Source: an uncultured Bacilli bacterium
GTDB lineage: Bacteria; Bacillota_I; Bacilli_A; RF39; UBA660
Assembly (NCBI GenBank): GCA_944358415.1
Contig: CALVRA010000006.1
Coordinates: 4,142 to 68,141, forward strand
Length of the DNA stretch: 64,000 bases
Reading direction: 5' to 3'
This document shows, piece after piece, positions 11,415 to 19,306 of the stretch. Within the stretch, counting starts at the first letter, position 1; each line of letters opens with the position of its first letter. The translations under genes were made by a program, and so were the position numbers. The notes under the pieces were generated by a model that saw only the letters and a program-made list of their open reading frames with translations, did no database searches and had not been told where the DNA came from.

Positions 11415-12605
11415 ATGGCAAAAGAAAAATTTGACCGTTCAAAACCACATGTTAATATTGGTACTATTGGACACGTTGACCATGGTAAAACAACATTAAC
11501 TGCGGCTATTACAAAATATTTATCAGATCAAAACCCTAGCTGGGCTAAATTCGAAGCTTATGCTGATATCGATAAAGCTCCAGAAGAAAGAGAAAGAGGT
11601 ATTACTATTAATACTGCTCATATCGAATATGAGACAGCTAATAGACACTATGCTCACGTTGACTGCCCAGGCCACGCTGACTATGTTAAAAACATGATCA
11701 CTGGTGCTGCACAAATGGATGGTGCTATCTTAGTTATTGCGGCTACAGATGGACCTATGGCACAAACTCGTGAACACATCTTACTATCTCGTCAAGTTGG
11801 AGTACCTCGTATGGTTGTATTCTTAAACAAATGCGATATGGTAGATGACGAAGAATTATTAGACTTAGTTGAAATGGAAGTAAGAGAACTATTAACTGAA
11901 TATGGTTATGATGGTGACAATACTCCAATCATCAGAGGTTCTGCTTTAAAAGCTTTAGAAGGAGACGCTAATTACGAAGCTAAAATTGGTGAATTAATGG
12001 AAGCTGTTGATTCTTGGATTGAAACTCCAGTTCGTGATAATGACAAACCATTCTTAATGCCAATTGAAGATGTATTCACTATTACTGGACGTGGTACAGT
12101 TGTTACTGGACGTGTTGAACGTGGTGAATTAAAATTAAATGAAGAAGTTGAAATCGTTGGTCTTAAACCTACTAAGAAAACAGTTGTTACTGGTATCGAA
12201 ATGTTTAGAAAACAATTAGACTTCACTGAAGCTGGAGACAATACTGGTTTATTACTGCGTGGTGTTTCACGTGACGAGGTTGAAAGAGGACAAGTTATTG
12301 CTAAACCAGGATCAGTTACTCCACATACTAAGTTCAAAGCTCAAGTTTATGTACTTAGTAAAGAAGAAGGTGGAAGACATACTCCATTCTTCAGTAACTA
12401 CCGTCCACAATTCTACTTCCGTACAACTGATGTAACTGGTGTTATTGAACTACCTGAAGGTGTTGAAATGGTAATGCCTGGTGACAATGTTGAAATGACA
12501 GTAGAATTAATCGCACCAATTGCTATTGAAAATGGTACTAAATTCTCTATCCGTGAAGGTGGTAGAACAGTTGGTGCTGGTAACGTTTCAGAAGTTATCG
12601 AATAA
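11415..12605 (+). CDS. tuf: Elongation factor Tu
   Basis: [23 protein letters not shown]. Confidence 0.99.
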
Positions 12606-12696: not shown

Positions 12697-13065
12697 ATGA
12701 ATAAAAAGGGACTTAATAAAGAATTTAAGAATTATGAGAGAAATGTAACAATTGTTTTAGTTGTTTTAACAGCTATTAGTTTAATAATTGATTTTATTGC
12801 ATATACTGGTATGGTATATAGTGATGGAACTTTATATAATACTGATGCAATAAGGGTTATTATGAATAGCGGTTTATTTATGTTATTAATTTGGGTAGAT
12901 AATATTGCTATTTATATAACTAATTTATTTTATTTTGCTGGTATTATCTCTTCTAAACGTGATATGATTGTTAAAATTGCTTTTATGATTTTCTCTGTTC
13001 TTTCAACAATTTTAATTAATCTTCAAATTGTTAATTTAATAGCTGATTTGTTTGGAATATTTTAA
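12697..13065 (+). CDS. Hypothetical membrane protein (about 3 TM)
   Basis: Strong GGGAGGA RBS; hydrophobic segments. Confidence 0.7.
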   Translation: MNKKGLNKEFKNYERNVTIVLVVLTAISLIIDFIAYTGMVYSDGTLYNTDAIRVIMNSGLFMLLIWVDNIAIYITNLFYFAGIISSKRDMIVKIAFMIFSVLSTILINLQIVNLIADLFGIF

Positions 13066-13236
13066 AAGATAATATGTTAAATAACGTGTGGCGTAAATTT
13101 AAAATAGCACTGTAAATTTACGCTATTATATTACTATTTTTCTGATTGATAGAAGAAATTTTTATGTTACAATAAGCGATATTTGATATTTGTCACTTGT
13201 GAATTTTTACAAGTGCTTTTAATATTGGCTATTTTA

Positions 13237-13265
13237 TTGACTTTTATCTTTAAAACCAATATAAT
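13237..13265 (+). promoter_or_regulatory. SigA promoter of the hisS-aspS operon
   Basis: TTGACT-17 bp-TATAAT. Confidence 0.7.
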
Positions 13266-13290
13266 TTTAAATAGTGAAAGGGTGTTTATT

Positions 13291-14571
13291 ATGTTACAAA
13301 AACCAAAAGGAACTTATGATATATATGGAGATAAAGCGGAAACTTATCTTTATTTTAGAAAATTAGTAGAGGCACTTATGGATAAATATAATGCGAAGTT
13401 TTTTGAAACGCCAATATTTGAAGCTAGCGAGCTTTTTCATAGAGGAGTAGGAGAGACTACTGATATTGTAAGTAAAGAAACTTATGATTTTAAAGATAGA
13501 GGAGATAGAAATTTAACTTTGAGACCAGAAGGAACTGCTGGAATTGTTAGGGCTTTTATAGAAAATAAATTATATGCAGGAAATTTGCCTTTAAAAGCTT
13601 GGTATTTGGGTCCAATGTTTAGATATGAAAGACCGCAAGCTGGTAGATATAGAGAATTTTATCAGTTTGGATTTGAGGCTTTTGGGTCTTTTGATGCAAT
13701 GATGGATGCGGAAGTTATTGGAATTGTCTATAATTTATTTAAAATACTTGGTTTAAAAGGTGTGAGTGTGAATATAAATACTTTAGGTGATAAAGAGTCC
13801 AGGGAAAATTATAGAAAAGCTTTACTTGAGTATTTCAAGCCGTATTTAAATGATTTATGCGATGATTGCAGAAGAAGATATGAAAAAAATCCACTTCGTA
13901 TTTTAGATTGTAAAGTTGATAGTAATAATGAGATTATGAAAGATGCTCCAAAAATGGTAGATTATTTGAATGAGGAAAGTAAAGAACATTTTGAAAAAGT
14001 TTTGAAGTATTTATCTGATATGGGTATTAGTTATAAGGTAAATTCTAATATTGTCAGAGGTCTTGATTATTATACACATACAGTTTTTGAAGTAGTGGCT
14101 GATATTGATGGTTTTGGAGCTCAAAATACTTTGGCGGCAGGTGGAAGATATAATCATTTAGTAGAGTTTGTTGGTGGACCTAGTATGCCTGGCGTTGGTT
14201 TTGCTTTGGGAATTGAAAGGTTATTTTTAGCTTTAGAAGCTGAGGAAATTGATATTAGGGAAAAGATTAATCCTGATGTTTATATTTTCAGTGTAGGTGA
14301 TGAATTTAAAGGAAATGTTTTAAGTTTAGCTAATGATTTAAGGATGGCTGGGTTTAATGTAGATATTGATTATAATAGTAAAAGTTTTAAAAGTAATTTT
14401 AAGAAAGCTGATAGTCTTTTAGTACACTTTATTATAATTATTGGTGAAGAGGAAGTTAAATCGAAGATTTTAACTATAAAGAATAATATTACAAAAGAGG
14501 AATATAAAGTTAAGTTAGATGAAATAATCGAATTTTTAGATGAAAAAATAGGTGATGAGGATGAAGATTAA
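13291..14571 (+). CDS. hisS: Histidyl-tRNA synthetase
   Basis: LRPEGTA, FRYERPQAGRYREF, VRGLDYY, GGRY; start moved to ATG 13291 (RBS GAAAGGGTG, MLQKPKGT). Confidence 0.98.
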   Translation: MLQKPKGTYDIYGDKAETYLYFRKLVEALMDKYNAKFFETPIFEASELFHRGVGETTDIVSKETYDFKDRGDRNLTLRPEGTAGIVRAFIENKLYAGNLPLKAWYLGPMFRYERPQAGRYREFYQFGFEAFGSFDAMMDAEVIGIVYNLFKILGLKGVSVNINTLGDKESRENYRKALLEYFKPYLNDLCDDCRRRYEKNPLRILDCKVDSNNEIMKDAPKMVDYLNEESKEHFEKVLKYLSDMGISYKVNSNIVRGLDYYTHTVFEVVADIDGFGAQNTLAAGGRYNHLVEFVGGPSMPGVGFALGIERLFLALEAEEIDIREKINPDVYIFSVGDEFKGNVLSLANDLRMAGFNVDIDYNSKSFKSNFKKADSLLVHFIIIIGEEEVKSKILTIKNNITKEEYKVKLDEIIEFLDEKIGDEDED

Positions 14572-16285
14572 TAATACTAGTTTAAGCAAAAAAAATGAGG
14601 GTGAGATAGTTACTCTTTATGGCTGGGTTAATAAAAAAAGAGATTTAGGTGGACTTATTTTTATTGATTTAAGGGATAGAAGTGGAATTATTCAATTAGT
14701 CATTGATCCAGCAAGTGATGTTTATGAAAAGGCCAGTGAGCTTAAAAGTGAATATGTTATAAAGGTAAATGGTAAGGTTGTTTTAAGAAAGGAAGCAAAT
14801 TCTAATTTAAAAACAGGGGAGGTTGAGGTTGAAGTTTCTTCATTAGAGATTTTGAATAAGTGTTTAGATTTGCCATTTGATTTAAATAATGTGACAGCTT
14901 TAGAAGAGACTAGATTAAAATATCGTTATTTAGATTTAAGAAGAGAAGAAATGAAAAATAATTTATTAGTAAGGCATAGGGTTTTACAAAGTGTGCGAAA
15001 TTATTTGAATTCTTTAGATTTTATGGAAATTGAGACACCAATACTTTGTAAGTCGACTCCTGAGGGGGCAAGAGATTATTTGGTTCCATCTAGGGTAAAC
15101 AAGGGATGTTTTTATGCATTGCCACAGTCACCTCAACTTTTTAAGCAAATTTTAATGATGGGTTCTTTGGAAAAATATTATCAAATTGCGAGATGTTTTA
15201 GAGATGAGGATTTAAGAGCGGATAGGCAGCCAGAATTTACACAGATAGATATGGAAATGAGTTTTTTATCGCAAGATGAGATTATGAGTATTACTGAGGG
15301 TTTGCTTTATAATTTGTTTAAAGATGTGAAAGGAATAGAAATTAGCCTACCTATTAATCGAATGACTTATGATGAGGCAATCAATTTATATGGTTCAGAT
15401 AAGCCTGATTTGAGATTTGAAAATAGAATTTATGATATTACTTTAGATTTTAAGGAAAGTGATTTCAGTTTATTTAATAATATTATTAATGAGGGTGGAA
15501 TTATTAATGCTTTAGTTTTTAATGCGGCAGATAAGTATTCTAGGAAAGATATTGATAAGTTAGGTGAATATGTAAAAACTTATGGGGCTAAGGCACTTGC
15601 TTTTCTTAAATATAATGGGGAGTTTTCTGGAAGTATTTCAAAGTTCGTAGATGAGAAAATAGGAGATAGTTTAGTTAAAAAGTTAGATTTAAAAGATAAT
15701 GATTTGATTTTAATTATTGCAGGCGATAAGAAAATGGTTAAGACATCTTTAGGGGCTTTAAGAATTAAGATGGCGAGAGATTTAAAAATGATAGATAATA
15801 ATAAATTTGCCTTTACTTGGGTTACGGATTTTCCAATGTTTGAGTATAGTAGTGAGGAAGAGAGATATATTGCTTGTCATCATCCATTTACTTTACCAAA
15901 GGATATTAATAGTTTATCTGATAAAGAAAATGCGAAAGCTTATGCTTATGATATTGTTATAAATGGGTATGAAGCTGGAGGTGGAAGCCTTAGAATATAT
16001 GACCCTGATATGCAGGAAAAGGTTTTAGAAGAGCTTGGATTTAGTAAGGAAAGTGCGGAGAAGCAGTTTGGTTTTTTAATTAATGCTTTGAATTATGGAT
16101 GTCCACCTCACGGCGGACTAGCACTTGGGCTTGAGAGATTAGTTATGATTTTATGTGGGACGGAGAATATTCGTGATGTGATTGCTTTTCCTAAGACTAC
16201 TAGTGCTTCTTGTTTGATGACTGATGCACCAAGTGAGGTTTCTTTAAAACAGTTAGAGGAGTTACATATAAAACTTAATGATTAG
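14561..16285 (+). CDS. aspS: Aspartyl-tRNA synthetase
   Basis: FIDLRDRSG, TPEGARDY, LPQSPQLFKQ, CFRDEDLRADRQPEFTQ, PPHGG; alternative start 14552. Confidence 0.98.
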   Translation: MKINNTSLSKKNEGEIVTLYGWVNKKRDLGGLIFIDLRDRSGIIQLVIDPASDVYEKASELKSEYVIKVNGKVVLRKEANSNLKTGEVEVEVSSLEILNKCLDLPFDLNNVTALEETRLKYRYLDLRREEMKNNLLVRHRVLQSVRNYLNSLDFMEIETPILCKSTPEGARDYLVPSRVNKGCFYALPQSPQLFKQILMMGSLEKYYQIARCFRDEDLRADRQPEFTQIDMEMSFLSQDEIMSITEGLLYNLFKDVKGIEISLPINRMTYDEAINLYGSDKPDLRFENRIYDITLDFKESDFSLFNNIINEGGIINALVFNAADKYSRKDIDKLGEYVKTYGAKALAFLKYNGEFSGSISKFVDEKIGDSLVKKLDLKDNDLILIIAGDKKMVKTSLGALRIKMARDLKMIDNNKFAFTWVTDFPMFEYSSEEERYIACHHPFTLPKDINSLSDKENAKAYAYDIVINGYEAGGGSLRIYDPDMQEKVLEELGFSKESAEKQFGFLINALNYGCPPHGGLALGLERLVMILCGTENIRDVIAFPKTTSASCLMTDAPSEVSLKQLEELHIKLND

Positions 16286-16309
16286 AGGCTTAAAGATAAG
16301 GTGGTTTAT

Positions 16310-17254
16310 ATGCAAGATTATTTAATTTATGAATTACTTAAAGATGAACTTAGAATTCAAGATAAAGCTTTAAGAAAATTGATTTGGCTTTTTAATAAAA
16401 TATTTTATTCAGAATGTGATTTTAAACAGAATATTTTACTTATTGGAAAAAGAGGAAGTGGTAAGACGACAATGCTTAAAAAAGTAGCAGAGTTGATGAA
16501 AATTCCAATGGGTGAAGTTTATAATATGTTTGGAATGGATGGATATAATGGGGATTTATTTGTAAATGGAATTTATCAAATGATGAATGATAGTAGTGAT
16601 GGACGTGGAATTTTGCTTCTGCACGATTTTCAGAATAATTTTATATATGATACTAGTGATGGCTTTAATTCTATGATTGCATCTGGGATTATGCAAATTG
16701 GTGATGGGGCATTTTATAATACTTCTAATATTACTATTGTAGGTGAGATTGATACTAATAATGTGACAGATTTGTTTCCTAAAGATAGAGATTATCTAGC
16801 AGATTTTGAAAATTATAGATTTATGTCACCTACGCTTAATCTTTTACACGATTATATTTCTGATGATAATAAGATTTATGTGGATGAGAATAATAATAAA
16901 GTGGCTAGTTTAGGTCTTGAGAAGTATGTGGCTGATAGAATTAGAAATAGTTTTTTGTCTACATGTACTCAAAATGCTTTTGGGGAAAAAATTTATATGG
17001 ATGATATGAATATGGAGGTAATATTAAGTGCTTTAAAGTCTCCTTTATCTGATTTAAACTTATACCGTGATGATTTAAGTAAGGATTATTTGTTATCTGA
17101 TGCTTTTGTTAAAGAAATTGCCTATCAAATTATGGAAAGTGGTGAGGGACTTCATTATGTTCGAAAGGCGGCTTTGGATACTATTTTTCGTGATTTTAAG
17201 TATAATAATAAAATTTTAAAAAAAGATTCTTTATTTAGTGTAAATAAAAAGTAG
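16310..17254 (+). CDS. Divergent ClpX-like AAA+ protein 1, catalytic motifs degenerate
   Basis: KQNILLIGKRGSGKT Walker A; Walker B position reads GILLLHDF; no Zn-binding domain; alternative start 16301. Confidence 0.7.
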   Translation: MQDYLIYELLKDELRIQDKALRKLIWLFNKIFYSECDFKQNILLIGKRGSGKTTMLKKVAELMKIPMGEVYNMFGMDGYNGDLFVNGIYQMMNDSSDGRGILLLHDFQNNFIYDTSDGFNSMIASGIMQIGDGAFYNTSNITIVGEIDTNNVTDLFPKDRDYLADFENYRFMSPTLNLLHDYISDDNKIYVDENNNKVASLGLEKYVADRIRNSFLSTCTQNAFGEKIYMDDMNMEVILSALKSPLSDLNLYRDDLSKDYLLSDAFVKEIAYQIMESGEGLHYVRKAALDTIFRDFKYNNKILKKDSLFSVNKK

Positions 17255-17264
17255 TGGTGATTTT

Positions 17265-18194
17265 ATGAATACAAAAGATATTTATAGTGAGCTTTCTAGT
17301 TTACTTTGTAATCAAGATAGAGTTTTAAAAGATTTGATTTTGACTTTAGCTAATAACAGAAAAGTAGCTAGGCCTAAGAATGTGTTATTGGTGGGACCGC
17401 TTGGAAGTGGTAAGACAACAATGGTTCAATTGGTGGCAAATAGAATGGATATTCCTTTGGCTGAGGTTTCTGGATTTTGTACTTTTAATGGAGTGAACAA
17501 TAAAGTTTTATATGATGCTTTTTCGAAGTTATATGTTTTGAACGAAAGTGAGAATTGCTCTGGGATTGTTTTAATTCATGATATGCGAGAATGCTTTTTA
17601 TATGGGGGATTTTCTGCTTTGGAGTCTTTGATTACCTCTGCAATGTTTACTTATGAAAATCATTTTTTAGATTTATCTAAAACGATGTTTATTGGTGAGG
17701 TTGACAATAATGGCTTTGAGGACTGTTTTTTACCTAAACCAGAATATACGCTTGATAGGTTAGAAGAGGCTATAATGACTTTGGATTATTCTGGTGATGA
17801 GGTTAAGAAAATTATTGAGGATTTGGTTTTATTTGGGAATGAGAATGATGATGCGGAAGAGGTTTATACACCAAAATATAGGACAGCTTTAAGGAATACT
17901 TTTTTATCGGTGGAATGTAATAAAGTTTTTCATAAGAAAATTTTTATGGATAATATGAAGCTAGAGGATATTAAAAAAGCTTTGAATTCACCAATTTCTG
18001 AACTTAAAGTATATTCAGATGATTTATGCGAAGAATATATGACCTCGTCTAGATTTATTAATTCGGTTGCTAGTCATATAAAGGAAAGTATGGTAGGACT
18101 TCATGATTTAGATGCGGCAGTGACAGAAGTTGCTGATTTCGATAATAGTAGAAAGGTTAAAGTTTATAAAGATAATTCTTTAATGAGATTATGA
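17265..18194 (+). CDS. Divergent ClpX-like AAA+ protein 2, paralog of the previous gene
   Basis: KNVLLVGPLGSGKT Walker A; Walker B position GIVLIHDM; shares FxGExDxN, RNxFLS, KIxMDxM, ALxSPxSxLxxYxDDL and GLH with paralog 1. Confidence 0.7.
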   Translation: MNTKDIYSELSSLLCNQDRVLKDLILTLANNRKVARPKNVLLVGPLGSGKTTMVQLVANRMDIPLAEVSGFCTFNGVNNKVLYDAFSKLYVLNESENCSGIVLIHDMRECFLYGGFSALESLITSAMFTYENHFLDLSKTMFIGEVDNNGFEDCFLPKPEYTLDRLEEAIMTLDYSGDEVKKIIEDLVLFGNENDDAEEVYTPKYRTALRNTFLSVECNKVFHKKIFMDNMKLEDIKKALNSPISELKVYSDDLCEEYMTSSRFINSVASHIKESMVGLHDLDAAVTEVADFDNSRKVKVYKDNSLMRL

Positions 18195-18994
18195 ATATGG
18201 AAAAAGTTAAGGAAATAGAGCGTAGTATTATTAAGAAGTTTAGACCTTCTATTTGGCATCCTTTTGTGAAAGCTATAAATGATTATAATTTGATTGAAGA
18301 AAATGATAAGATTGCAGTGTGTATAAGTGGTGGTAAAGATTCATTTTTATTAGCTAAATGTTTAGAAGAACTTCAAAGACATGGAAAGGTTAATTTTGAA
18401 CTAAAATATATTATTATGAATCCTGGTTATACGGATGATGTTTTAAATAAATTAAAGGAAAATTTGGAAATTTTAAAAATATCTGCAGATATTTTTAAAA
18501 GTCCTATTTTTAACTTTATTGATGATAAGAAAAATCCATGTTATTTGTGTGCAAAAATGAGAAGAGGTTATTTATATAGTTATGCGGAAAAGTTAGGGTG
18601 TAATAAGATTGCTTTAGGTCATCATTTTGATGATGCTTTAGAAACTATTTTAATGAATTTAATTTATAATGGGATGTATGCTGGTATGCTTCCTAAGTTA
18701 AAAAGTGATAATTTTGAAGGAATGGAGTTAATTAGACCTTTGTTTTTAGTTAGGGAAAAGGAAATAAAGGAGTGGGCCAAATATAATAATCTATCTTTTG
18801 TAGATTGTGGATGTTTTGTAGCACAGAAGAATAGTGGTAAACGTATTTTGATGAAACAGTTAGTTGATGAATTAAAAGACTACTATATTGATGCGGATAG
18901 AAATATTTTTAATTCTCTTAGTAATGTTAAACTTAATAAAGTTATTAAATATTATGAAAATGGTGAAGAAAATAGTTTTTTAGATAAGTATTAG
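18191..18994 (+). CDS. ttcA: tRNA 2-thiocytidine biosynthesis protein, TtcA family
   Basis: PP-loop SGGKDS, CYLC, GHHFDD, LIRPL, CGC. Confidence 0.85.
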   Translation: MNMEKVKEIERSIIKKFRPSIWHPFVKAINDYNLIEENDKIAVCISGGKDSFLLAKCLEELQRHGKVNFELKYIIMNPGYTDDVLNKLKENLEILKISADIFKSPIFNFIDDKKNPCYLCAKMRRGYLYSYAEKLGCNKIALGHHFDDALETILMNLIYNGMYAGMLPKLKSDNFEGMELIRPLFLVREKEIKEWAKYNNLSFVDCGCFVAQKNSGKRILMKQLVDELKDYYIDADRNIFNSLSNVKLNKVIKYYENGEENSFLDKY

Positions 18995-19099
18995 TTATGA
19001 TTTAATTGTTATAGTTTTTAATAAGTAAATTTTAAGAAAATAATGTGAAGTTTTGTAAAGATACTGTTCAAAAAGATATATATATGGTATAATTTAATT

Positions 19100-19266
19100 G
19101 TCTAAAAGAAGAATACCATTATGAAAAACCTACTAAGTATAACGATTGGGAATCTAATTCACTGATGGTGTAGAATACTTTAATTTATTAAAGGATCCTA
19201 AAATTGGTGATGTGGTGCCCACCTGGGAGATCAGGTTTTTAATTCGTTAAGGTTTCTCTTTTGGAC
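19100..19266 (+). ncRNA. ssrS: 6S RNA
   Basis: 167 nt; ends pair (GTCTAAAAGAAGAATACC / GGTTTCTCTTTTGGAC); CCCACCTG...CAGGTT motif typical of Bacillota 6S; extended -10 TGGTATAAT at 19085-19093; downstream of aspS, as for B. subtilis 6S-1. Confidence 0.75.
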
Positions 19267-19277
19267 TTTTCTTATTT

Positions 19278-19306
19278 GAAAAGTTCTTGAAATTCAAGGG
19301 CTTTTC
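19278..19306. terminator. Hairpin between 6S RNA and the convergent rnhC
   Basis: GAAAAGTTCTTGAA-a-TTCAAGGGCTTTTC. Confidence 0.6.

Follow-up and report, generated by a model that had tools for sequence, protein, structure and literature searches.

The main finding of this study is that two adjacent genes, A and B, in a 64,000-nucleotide stretch of DNA from an uncultured Bacilli bacterium (hereafter the window, meaning the whole stretch analysed) encode proteins in which the ClpX fold and the nucleotide-binding P-loop are kept under selection and the elements of a motor have been lost, namely those for hydrolysis, for substrate grip and, in B, also for ClpP docking. ClpX is among the best-studied protein-unfolding motors, and a natural family of this kind bears on what the ClpX module does when it is not a motor, although the weight of the finding is bounded by its origin in one genus of uncultured gut bacteria. 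Our tentative interpretation, to which we give slightly less than an even chance, is that both proteins derive, within this lineage, from a ClpX-type AAA+ unfoldase, being pared down to the nucleotide-binding module and acting as a non-catalytic ATP-binding switch or subunit. The new observations are a genus-restricted family with multiple forms at the hisS–aspS locus, its stepwise decay, and an invariant Glu at the tip of strand β4 that serves as the family's mark.

The gene pair and its operon

Gene A was listed from a GTG at position 16301; an alternative ATG at 16310 is spaced 8 nt from an AAGGTGG ribosome-binding site, so that the ORF at 16310..17254 (+ strand, 314 aa) is the likelier gene. 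Gene B (17265..18194, + strand, 309 aa) follows it, and the two products are 32 % identical by BLASTP over 311 columns (E 3e-43), in agreement with the preliminary description of two intact paralogous ORFs at this place. Immediately 5′ of A lies the aspS ORF (14552..16285, + strand), preceded by hisS (13183..14571, + strand; an ORF labelled from BLASTP in related loci), the first gene of the predicted operon, for which the TTG listed as start probably lies 5′ of the true one. The stop codon of B overlaps the start (ATGA) of a gene immediately 3′ of it for a TtcA-like PP-loop tRNA thiolation protein (18191..18994, + strand), which scored 207.5 bits against the TtcA family NF007972, under the cut-off of 272, and matched PF01171 with an E-value of 5e-17. 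A 6S RNA is found at 19096..19271 on the + strand (Rfam RF00013, 54.5 bits vs a gathering score of 46.4). The terminator scan placed a terminator-like hairpin at 19278–19306, 3′ of the 6S RNA, and no such site between 13215 and 19221; these co-transcription signals suggest that A and B share one operon with hisS, aspS, the TtcA-like gene and the 6S RNA. No T-box or other leader was detected 5′ of hisS, nothing except the 6S RNA reaching its Rfam gathering score between 9000 and 24000.

Relationship to ClpX

Structure and profile searches support the earlier proposal that both proteins are ClpX-like. AlphaFold2 models had a pLDDT of 81.7 and a pTM of 0.79 for A, and 86.1 and 0.83 for B. When the B model was compared with the PDB by Foldseek, the 26 matches listed (ranks 1–49) were all ClpX chains, with a best E-value of 4.2e-11, TM-scores of 0.55–0.63 and 15–19 % identity among the matches listed; the 25 matches listed for A were likewise all ClpX (best E 2.7e-9). 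The top PDB match of the family profile was Helicobacter pylori ClpX (1um8, E 6.8e-13), on which the family's Walker B region aligns to FIDEIDK and its lid to TGARGL. A and B share with ClpX the fold of both AAA+ domains, large and small, Walker A, an N-terminal helix in which a Gln is conserved, the strand order near Walker B and β4, and a lid helix bearing the sensor-II position. Solved ClpX chains include 3hte, 3hws, 1um8 and 6vfs.

In the curated libraries, by contrast with a cut-off of 370.75 (TIGR00382) and 359 bits (NF003745), the NCBIfam ClpX families gave 18.4 and 22.5 bits for A and 24.3 bits for B, in matches confined to the P-loop and its surroundings, about 30 residues in all. For PF00004 (AAA, gathering score 21.2 bits), B was above the threshold at 28.9 bits and A just below it at 20.0 bits. 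Matches to A and B in Pfam, NCBIfam, PADLOC and PHROGs were at the level of the P-loop only, and no library supplied a name for them. Nor was a natural counterpart found in the literature searched, which agrees with the initial impression that no system like this pair has been described. Look-alikes in the ESM Atlas, to be taken as leads only, were short clusters of the AAA/AAA_2 type, whose sources are Verrucomicrobiota, Bacillota and viruses.

Two other origins were considered and rejected. HslU belongs to the same AAA+ unfoldase clade and was matched by the family profile with E-values of 5.5e-9 to 1e-7; however, its profile score was below that of ClpX, it was missing among the Foldseek matches listed, and A and B are without an I-domain. 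Against the HslU family TIGR00390 (cut-off 362.45 bits), A scored 13.4 bits, and this family was not among the 25 listed for B. Weak NCBIfam matches to clamp-loader (RFC) and RuvB families span residues 16–70 only, whereas the fold and profile searches lead to ClpX.

Outside the family, the sequences closest to A and B are a 466-aa ClpX-like protein encoded in the window's own genome, on a contig different from that of the pair (G000:C10:28393-29790), and its relatives of 450–580 aa in the order. The family profile gave 73–83 bits to ClpX-like proteins of 470–560 aa vs 44–52 bits to solved ClpX structures, and hhalign aligned the family with the 466-aa protein over 231 columns with a probability of 97.6 %. 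Like A and B, this protein and its relatives have no Zn domain and, by reading, no long IGF loop; unlike A and B, the 466-aa protein is extended by about 140 aa at its N-terminus and keeps canonical Walker A, Walker B (VIDEF), GYVG, the arginine finger (GRF) and GAR. Pfam recognized in the 466-aa protein only AAA_2, AAA and ClpB_D2-small.

Conservation and loss of functional motifs

In ClpX, hydrolysis of ATP depends on box II, on the Walker A and Walker B motifs, on the Arg of sensor II and on the arginine finger, and the substrate is contacted by the pore-1 residues Y153/V154, by pore-2 and by the RKH loop (PMC7112951). These positions were compared in 58 family sequences, including 17 orthologues of A and 18 of B. 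Walker A (GKRGSGKTT in A, GPLGSGKTT in B) was intact in 58/58, as had been claimed for the pair itself, and the invariant columns mostly line the nucleotide pocket. At the Walker B position, where 1um8 has FIDEI, the reported HD(F/M) was confirmed, A having LLHDF and B LIHDM. The further suggestion that the same substitutions are kept in both genes stood for A, in which LLHDF occurred in 17/17 orthologues, and not for B, the 18 orthologues of which have the form I[H/E/Q/K]DM with a variable first residue (H in nine, E in six, Q in two and K in one). The position of the catalytic Glu is occupied by Asp in all 35 orthologues of A and B. The tip of β4 reads VGEID in A and IGEVD in B; its Glu was invariant in 58/58 family sequences, including copies with a canonical IDEL Walker B, and an Asp/Asn at this tip is also conserved.

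The arginine finger, present as R in the genome's own ClpX-like protein, is replaced by A in paralogue A (QNAF) and V in paralogue B (NKVF), and the alignment had Arg here in 0/35 orthologues. Its reported absence therefore holds, but B keeps a basic residue one position ahead (K/R in 18/18 orthologues, K in the window's B), as do 4/4 A-like single copies; a basic residue near the finger position was absent from 16/17 A orthologues. Sensor II, GAR in 1um8, is GLH in A and B and in all of their orthologues (17/17 and 18/18), so that the noted change to His is general. The first AAA+ helix forms the start of either protein, and position 5 of the family profile aligns to residue 69 of the full-length ClpX chains 8e91_A and 6vfs_E, which bears out the reported lack of a Zn-binding domain.

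The substrate-gripping parts have also changed. GYNG, cited as a remnant of the GYVG pore loop in one paralogue, is indeed present in the window's A, but is unique to it (1/17 A orthologues); the pore-1 region is variable and its dipeptide unconserved. Sequence alignment by hhalign, which is not a superposition, against the genome's own ClpX-like protein places a gap of 12 residues after Walker B, where pore-2 would lie, and another of 6 residues in the hairpin that follows, at the place of RKH. The statement that neither protein has an IGF loop is correct for B and less certain for A, in which 13/17 orthologues have an [ILVF]G[FL] tripeptide where ClpX has this loop (LGL in the window's A). 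In the A model the tripeptide sits not on a long loop but at the junction of an A-specific β-hairpin (E189–191/E197–199), which ends in LGL, and a helix (201–215). The description of the pair as catalytically degenerate thus stands in so far as residues for hydrolysis and translocation in ClpX are lost, whereas 'dead' would say too much, since the Glu and the Asp/Asn of the β4 tip, the sensor-II His and the ED of six of the 18 B orthologues could together make up a rebuilt site.

Selection, distribution and forms of the family

Both genes are under selection, as judged from dN/dS values (NG86, 12 genome pairs) of 0.14–0.36 for A and 0.08–0.37 for B; none of the 35 orthologues of A and B that were read has a broken reading frame, and the frames are intact in 17 pair-bearing species. 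These results agree with the view that the ORFs are kept by selection and are not pseudogenes. Both evolve faster than their neighbours, for which the same comparison gave 0.07–0.24 (ttcA) and 0.05–0.15 (aspS). Between genomes G011 and G021, identity was 57 % for B vs 91 % for A, 93 % for ttcA and 98 % for aspS. The trees of A and B are incongruent: the B data reject the clade of G011, G021 and G024 supported by A (p-AU 1.4e-5, for a group chosen after seeing the identities). Such incongruence is unexpected for an obligate, co-evolving pair.

A search of related genomes found the family in 34 of the 65 species genomes of the window's genus, from 31 of which it is missing, and in none of 198 genomes from 97 other genera of the same order; all 17 pair-bearing species belong to the window's genus. 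The family locus is in every case the hisS–aspS neighbourhood, with 0–3 copies per genome and at least five forms within the genus; aspS is 5′ of the family member in 28/33 loci read, the exceptions being G020, G044, G070, G019 and G023. Orthologues of aspS with 68–90 % identity were found in 59/64 other genomes of the genus, identity to the window's aspS being 80–90 % among the pair genomes and not above 78 % in the others. Four copies of multi-copy loci keep a canonical IDEL Walker B, four of six short forms keep the finger Arg, and some single-copy relatives carry a PIGFG or SIGFAG loop. Because relatives keep one or another of these canonical elements, we interpret the forms as stages in the stepwise decay of a ClpX-type gene. 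This graded series, at one locus in sister species, is a natural dissection of the passage from AAA+ unfoldase to pseudo-enzyme.

The pair is, as first noted, packed among translation genes, but the link looks positional. A functional tie to TtcA was rejected: ttcA directly follows aspS, with no family gene, in two of five family-less genomes checked (G043 and G060) and is located elsewhere in the family-less G076, G078 and G046, while the family gene is 3′ of ttcA in G044 and G070, and ttcA is non-adjacent in G015.

Canonical ClpX above the curated cut-off was found in 0/65 genomes of the genus and 0/121 genomes of the order, and ClpP is present in 64/65 genomes of the genus. For the earlier idea that the pair is a decoy or inhibitor of host ClpX, no canonical ClpX to act on was thus found in these genomes, the sole candidate target being the 466-aa protein. 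The gene for the latter occurs in 17/17 pair genomes, 4/4 A-like single-copy genomes, G064 and G057, and altogether in 25 of the 34 family-positive genomes, leaving nine without it.

Discussion

Our preferred, tentative reading starts from an ancestral ClpX-type AAA+ unfoldase. In A and B the Zn domain and pore-2 stretch are lost and the hairpin at the RKH place is shortened; what remains is a module of one large and one small AAA+ domain with an intact P-loop and the Gln of the N-terminal helix. Since it is the nucleotide pocket that most of the invariant columns line, A and B would still bind ATP; they would hydrolyse it slowly or not at all and be unable to translocate polypeptide. Retention of the ATP-binding loop with loss of catalytic and substrate-gripping parts makes it probable, from sequence, that they bind ATP without unfolding proteins, and a protein that binds ATP, hydrolyses little or none and does not translocate may be expected to act as a switch or as a non-catalytic subunit of an AAA+-type oligomer, which could be made up of A with B and possibly the 466-aa ClpX-like protein. 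A prediction of the A–B complex, run without controls, scored 0.01, the mark being 0.32, and has no bearing either way on binding. Degenerate AAA+ subunits are known in mixed assemblies, including δ/δ′ of the clamp loader, the D1 rings of Pex1/Pex6 and chloroplast FtsHi, and usually work alongside active paralogues. A and B resemble these in having an AAA+ fold under selection and lacking canonical hydrolysis residues; they differ in having known partners and roles and in not being derived from ClpX.

One argument against this reading is that the active site may have been rebuilt and is not dead. A and B would then be working ATPases, divergent but active ClpX-like chaperones, in which the acidic residues of the β4-tip GE-x-D, with the Asp that occupies the former Glu position, activate metal and water, His stands in for the sensor-II Arg and, in B, the K/R beside the old finger position acts in trans. 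We regard this as unlikely, with perhaps one chance in several. The invariance of the β4-tip Glu even alongside a canonical Walker B, the constant Asp, the ED of some B orthologues, the K/R of B and the A-like single copies and the concentration of invariant columns in the pocket all speak for it, but nearly all A orthologues lack a basic residue near the finger, no precedent was found in the literature searched and, with pore-2 deleted and pore-1 unconserved, hydrolysis would have no obvious thing to drive. Of similar, rather low probability is that A and B, in parallel with the inactive subunits of other AAA+ assemblies, are non-catalytic subunits of mixed rings with the 466-aa ClpX-like ATPase, which they would tune or retarget. 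That protein is the nearest full-length relative and keeps its catalytic motifs, and its gene accompanies the pair throughout; its lone family-less carrier, G063, is 63 % complete and has no orthologous aspS locus in its assembly, and the triple-copy genomes G050 and G023, without the 466-aa gene, have at the locus a copy with canonical Walker B. Against this, co-occurrence is confined to one sub-lineage and, given the aspS identities in pair genomes and elsewhere, may be a single event; the 466-aa gene and the pair are unlinked, a canonical-Walker-B copy coexists with the 466-aa gene in G056, both are missing from G015 and from the short forms, and nine family-positive genomes do without the 466-aa gene.

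The patchy distribution, the variable copy number and forms, the rapid divergence relative to neighbours and the incongruent trees could also be read as marks of a locus in genetic conflict (phage defence or counter-defence) or another fast-changing interaction, which we think improbable. The best PADLOC matches (BrxF and IetA, E 7e-5 to 8.5e-5) cover about 30 residues and, like those in PHROGs, only the P-loop; B had no tblastn match among 50,697 phage records, a scan of viral contigs gave 83 pattern matches of which none was confirmed, and fold matches in BFVD were generic Clp/AAA proteins. There is moreover no effector gene, the setting is a housekeeping operon and not an island, and mean dN/dS is well below 1. 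That A and B are functionless, decaying duplicates is very improbable: the family is missing from nearly half of the genus and constraint is relaxed relative to the neighbours, but frames are intact, dN/dS is low and motif columns are invariant.

A more speculative proposal, which we consider improbable though attractive, takes up the tripeptide of A. In a lineage that keeps ClpP and in which no canonical ClpX was found, a ClpX-derived ring of A and B without pore loops or hydrolysis could dock ClpP through an IGF-type remnant on the A hairpin, as a cap that binds ATP without burning it and opens or blocks the ClpP gate. If true, bacteria would have in it a counterpart to the proteasome activators that work independently of energy. 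Relatives present in single copy, with PIGFG or SIGFAG loops, would be intermediate stages; the form in G015 has PIGFG within an IGF-like loop.

Gene order and ClpX-like fold

The preliminary description had placed two adjacent ORFs, A and B, in the hisS–aspS–ttcA–6S region, and both are present there on the + strand. The more likely start of A (16310–17254, 314 aa) is the ATG at 16310 rather than the GTG at 16301 given in the ORF listing, because that ATG comes 8 nt after the end of an AAGGTGG ribosome-binding site. The ATG of B (17265–18194, 309 aa) is preceded by a GGTGA site, and its stop forms an ATGA overlap with the start of a TtcA-like PP-loop gene (18191–18994; NF007972, 207.5 bits, below the cut-off of 272). 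The full order is hisS, aspS (14552–16285), A, B, the TtcA-like gene and, directly 3′ of the latter, a 6S RNA gene (19096–19271, + strand; Rfam RF00013, 54.5 bits). A terminator scan found no terminator-like sites within 13215–19221, and a terminator-like hairpin (19278–19306) follows the 6S RNA. The order hisS–aspS…6S…rnhC, the last on the − strand, recurs among related genomes. Between tuf (11415–12605) and hisS is an ORF (12697–13065, + strand) whose 122-aa product has several hydrophobic stretches. In one related genome, G008, the ttcA-like frame (L004:2631–3227) is open for only 199 aa versus about 267 elsewhere, possibly through truncation or a frameshift at its 5′ end.

Alignment of A with B (311 columns, 32% identity, E 3e-43) identifies the two as paralogs. 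Family libraries recognized the P-loop alone in them: PF00004 scored 28.9 bits for B and 20.0 for A (cut-off 21.2), ClpX equivalogs reached 18–24 bits against cut-offs of 359–371, and PADLOC and PHROGs matches spanned about 30 residues. The predicted structures of B (pLDDT 86.1, pTM 0.83; 24-row alignment) and A (pLDDT 81.7, pTM 0.79; 27-row alignment) are confident and, as models, decisive for a ClpX fold. Among the Foldseek PDB matches listed, those of B (26 rows, ranks 1–49; best E 4.2e-11, TM 0.55–0.63, identity 15–19%) and those of A (25 rows; best E 2.7e-9) were exclusively ClpX chains. A profile of the family, i.e. A, B and their relatives at the hisS–aspS locus, had Helicobacter pylori ClpX (1um8) as its top match (E 6.8e-13), followed by E. 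coli-type ClpX (E about 1e-10) and by HslU (E no better than 5.5e-9). The ClpX likeness proposed from the sequence is thus confirmed, far beyond chance, by the Foldseek matches listed and the family profile.

Degenerate motifs in A and B

A published account of ClpXP structures (PMC7112951) names what ATP hydrolysis requires: box II, the Walker A and Walker B motifs, the sensor-II Arg and an arginine finger supplied by the adjacent subunit. According to the same account, substrate is contacted by pore-1 residues Y153/V154 and the pore-2 and RKH loops. When the family profile was aligned to 1um8, G-I-V-L-I-H-D lay on G-I-V-F-I-D-E, and E-S-x-x-G-L-H on E-R-K-T-G-A-R. The same Walker B register was obtained by hhalign (97.6% probability, 231 columns) against a 466-aa ClpX-like protein with canonical motifs encoded on another contig of the same genome, outside the window (G000:C10:28393–29790; L011:1120–2520). 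In that alignment B has V opposite the arginine of GRF, and the family has a 12-residue gap after Walker B, at the place of the pore-2 loop, and a 6-residue gap in the next hairpin, at the place of the RKH loop.

We tabulated these motifs in 58 family sequences from 33 genomes. Walker A is intact in all 58. The preliminary description had read HD at Walker B in both proteins of the window, which is correct there; across orthologs it holds for A (LLHDF in 17/17) but not for B, which reads I-x-D-M (n=18) with x being H in nine, E in six, Q in two and K in one. The GYNG reported in A is present but confined to the window's genome. Arg is absent from the finger position (the site of the ClpX arginine finger) in all 35 A and B orthologs, with K/R one residue ahead of it in 18/18 B and 1/17 A, and every one of the 35 has the sensor-II His. 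The hallmark of the family is a Glu in the beta4 strand tip (G-E-[IV]-[DN], or A-E-G in short forms), found in 58/58 sequences; the 466-aa protein reads L-G-A-F there.

Relatives at the same locus retain features absent from A and B, which makes a ClpX-type protein with an IGF loop the probable ancestor of the family. Walker B is canonical (IDEL) in four copies from multi-copy loci; Arg is retained at the finger position in four of six short forms (about 253–278 aa); the copy in G015 retains Glu (IHEM) and a PIGFG loop; and the short forms read SIGFAG (G044) or TGF, SGF or AGF. The tripeptide [ILVF]G[FL], present in 13 of 17 A orthologs (LGL in the window), may be a remnant of the IGF loop; in the model it follows an A-specific beta-hairpin at the start of the next helix and is not on a long loop, and its central Gly is substituted in 4/17.

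Range and history of the family

Of the 40 proteins returned by a word-indexed search, 38 are close to full length and share 54–95% identity with B. When 1.84 billion representatives were searched exhaustively with a profile, only 17 clusters reached E ≤ 1e-30; ClpX-like proteins of 470–560 aa (73–83 bits) came next among the full-length matches. Within the window's genus, 34 of 65 species genomes carry a member at E ≤ 1e-15, and 17 have the A+B pair. B stands alone in G064 (the G057 locus is cut), a single A-like copy occurs in four genomes and a distinct single copy in G015, G019 has two copies, G023, G050 and G056 have three, and six genomes have the short form. No family member of about 310 aa was found in 198 genomes from 97 other genera of the order, where matches were limited to 47–70 bits in frames of 437–782 aa. 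The tandem copies of the triple loci (L032, L033 and L035, in G050, G056 and G023 respectively), between aspS and ttcA, measure about 335, 372–380 and 293–296 aa, the middle one combining canonical IDEL with a long acidic stretch inserted at the position of the IGF loop.

All family loci adjoin hisS–aspS and most precede ttcA; in five family-less genomes ttcA lies directly after aspS (two) or elsewhere (three), a gene order that points to insertion of the ClpX-like genes into, or their loss from, a housekeeping operon. TtcA is independent of them.

None of the 65 genus genomes and none of 121 order genomes (73 genera) yielded a canonical ClpX above the curated cut-off, control genomes behaving as expected. 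ClpP is present in 64/65 genus genomes, and the genome of the window contains two frames of Hsp100 type (707 and 779 aa). Walker A and Walker B are canonical in the 466-aa protein, as are GYVG, GRF with the arginine finger, and GAR; its N-terminus is extended by about 140 aa that match nothing in Pfam, and it lacks the Zn domain and a long IGF loop. Relatives of 450–850 aa occur in 40/121 order genomes. The protein itself occurs in 26/65 genus genomes, 25 of them family-positive, among which are the 17 pair genomes without exception; the remaining one, G063, is 63% complete and its assembly lacks the orthologous aspS locus. The nine family-positive genomes without the protein are G015, G023, G050 and the six with short forms. 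Judged by aspS, whose identity to the window's is 80–90% in the pair genomes and no higher than 78% in others, those genomes belong to a single sub-lineage, so the co-occurrence may be one event. G043, G046, G060 and G076 have a second aspS-like gene (40–42% identity) in addition to the orthologous aspS; a gene of this type is the sole aspS found in G063.

Across 12 genome pairs (NG86), many near saturation (dS near 1), dN/dS was well short of 1: 0.14–0.36 for A and 0.08–0.37 for B, compared with 0.07–0.24 for ttcA and 0.05–0.15 for aspS. The least saturated pairs gave A 0.17 and B 0.08 (G041–G077), A 0.14 and B 0.18 (G008–G022), and A 0.22 (G011–G021). A and B are under purifying selection, weaker than that on their neighbours. 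Between G011 and G021, B is only 57% identical (dS 0.93) versus 91% for A (dS 0.20), 93% for ttcA and 98% for aspS. The A tree unites G011, G021 and G024 (support 99), a clade that the B data reject (p-AU 1.4e-5, an optimistic value because the clade was named after the identities were seen). Alleles of A and B have accordingly been reassorted.

Possible roles of A and B

The most likely reading, which we favour tentatively, is that A and B are ClpX-derived modules predicted to have retained nucleotide binding and lost translocation, with slow or no ATP hydrolysis, and that they would serve either as a switch or, within an AAA+-type oligomer, as subunits without catalysis. A site that has been rebuilt but is active, to which the invariant beta4-tip Glu and the sensor-II His could contribute, seems unlikely to us. 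Mixed rings with the 466-aa protein, which accompanies every A+B pair, we rate as similarly unlikely, the shared occurrence being possibly one event. A role in genetic conflict, with which the reassorted alleles would fit, we regard as improbable. That A and B are decaying and functionless is barely credible beside the purifying selection on both.

Degenerate AAA+ subunits are an already known kind. What is new here is a pore-less variant, derived from ClpX and restricted to one genus, whose members form a graded series of decay; a full-text literature search, judged from titles and abstracts, gave no natural counterpart. The anatomy of A and B is clear and unusual, and their range is narrow (one genus). 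Near-identical DNA to window positions 14600–19300 (at least half of sampled words) is present in 13 public runs from five studies, which carry the labels chicken gut, feces or metagenome; the source sample may be among these runs.
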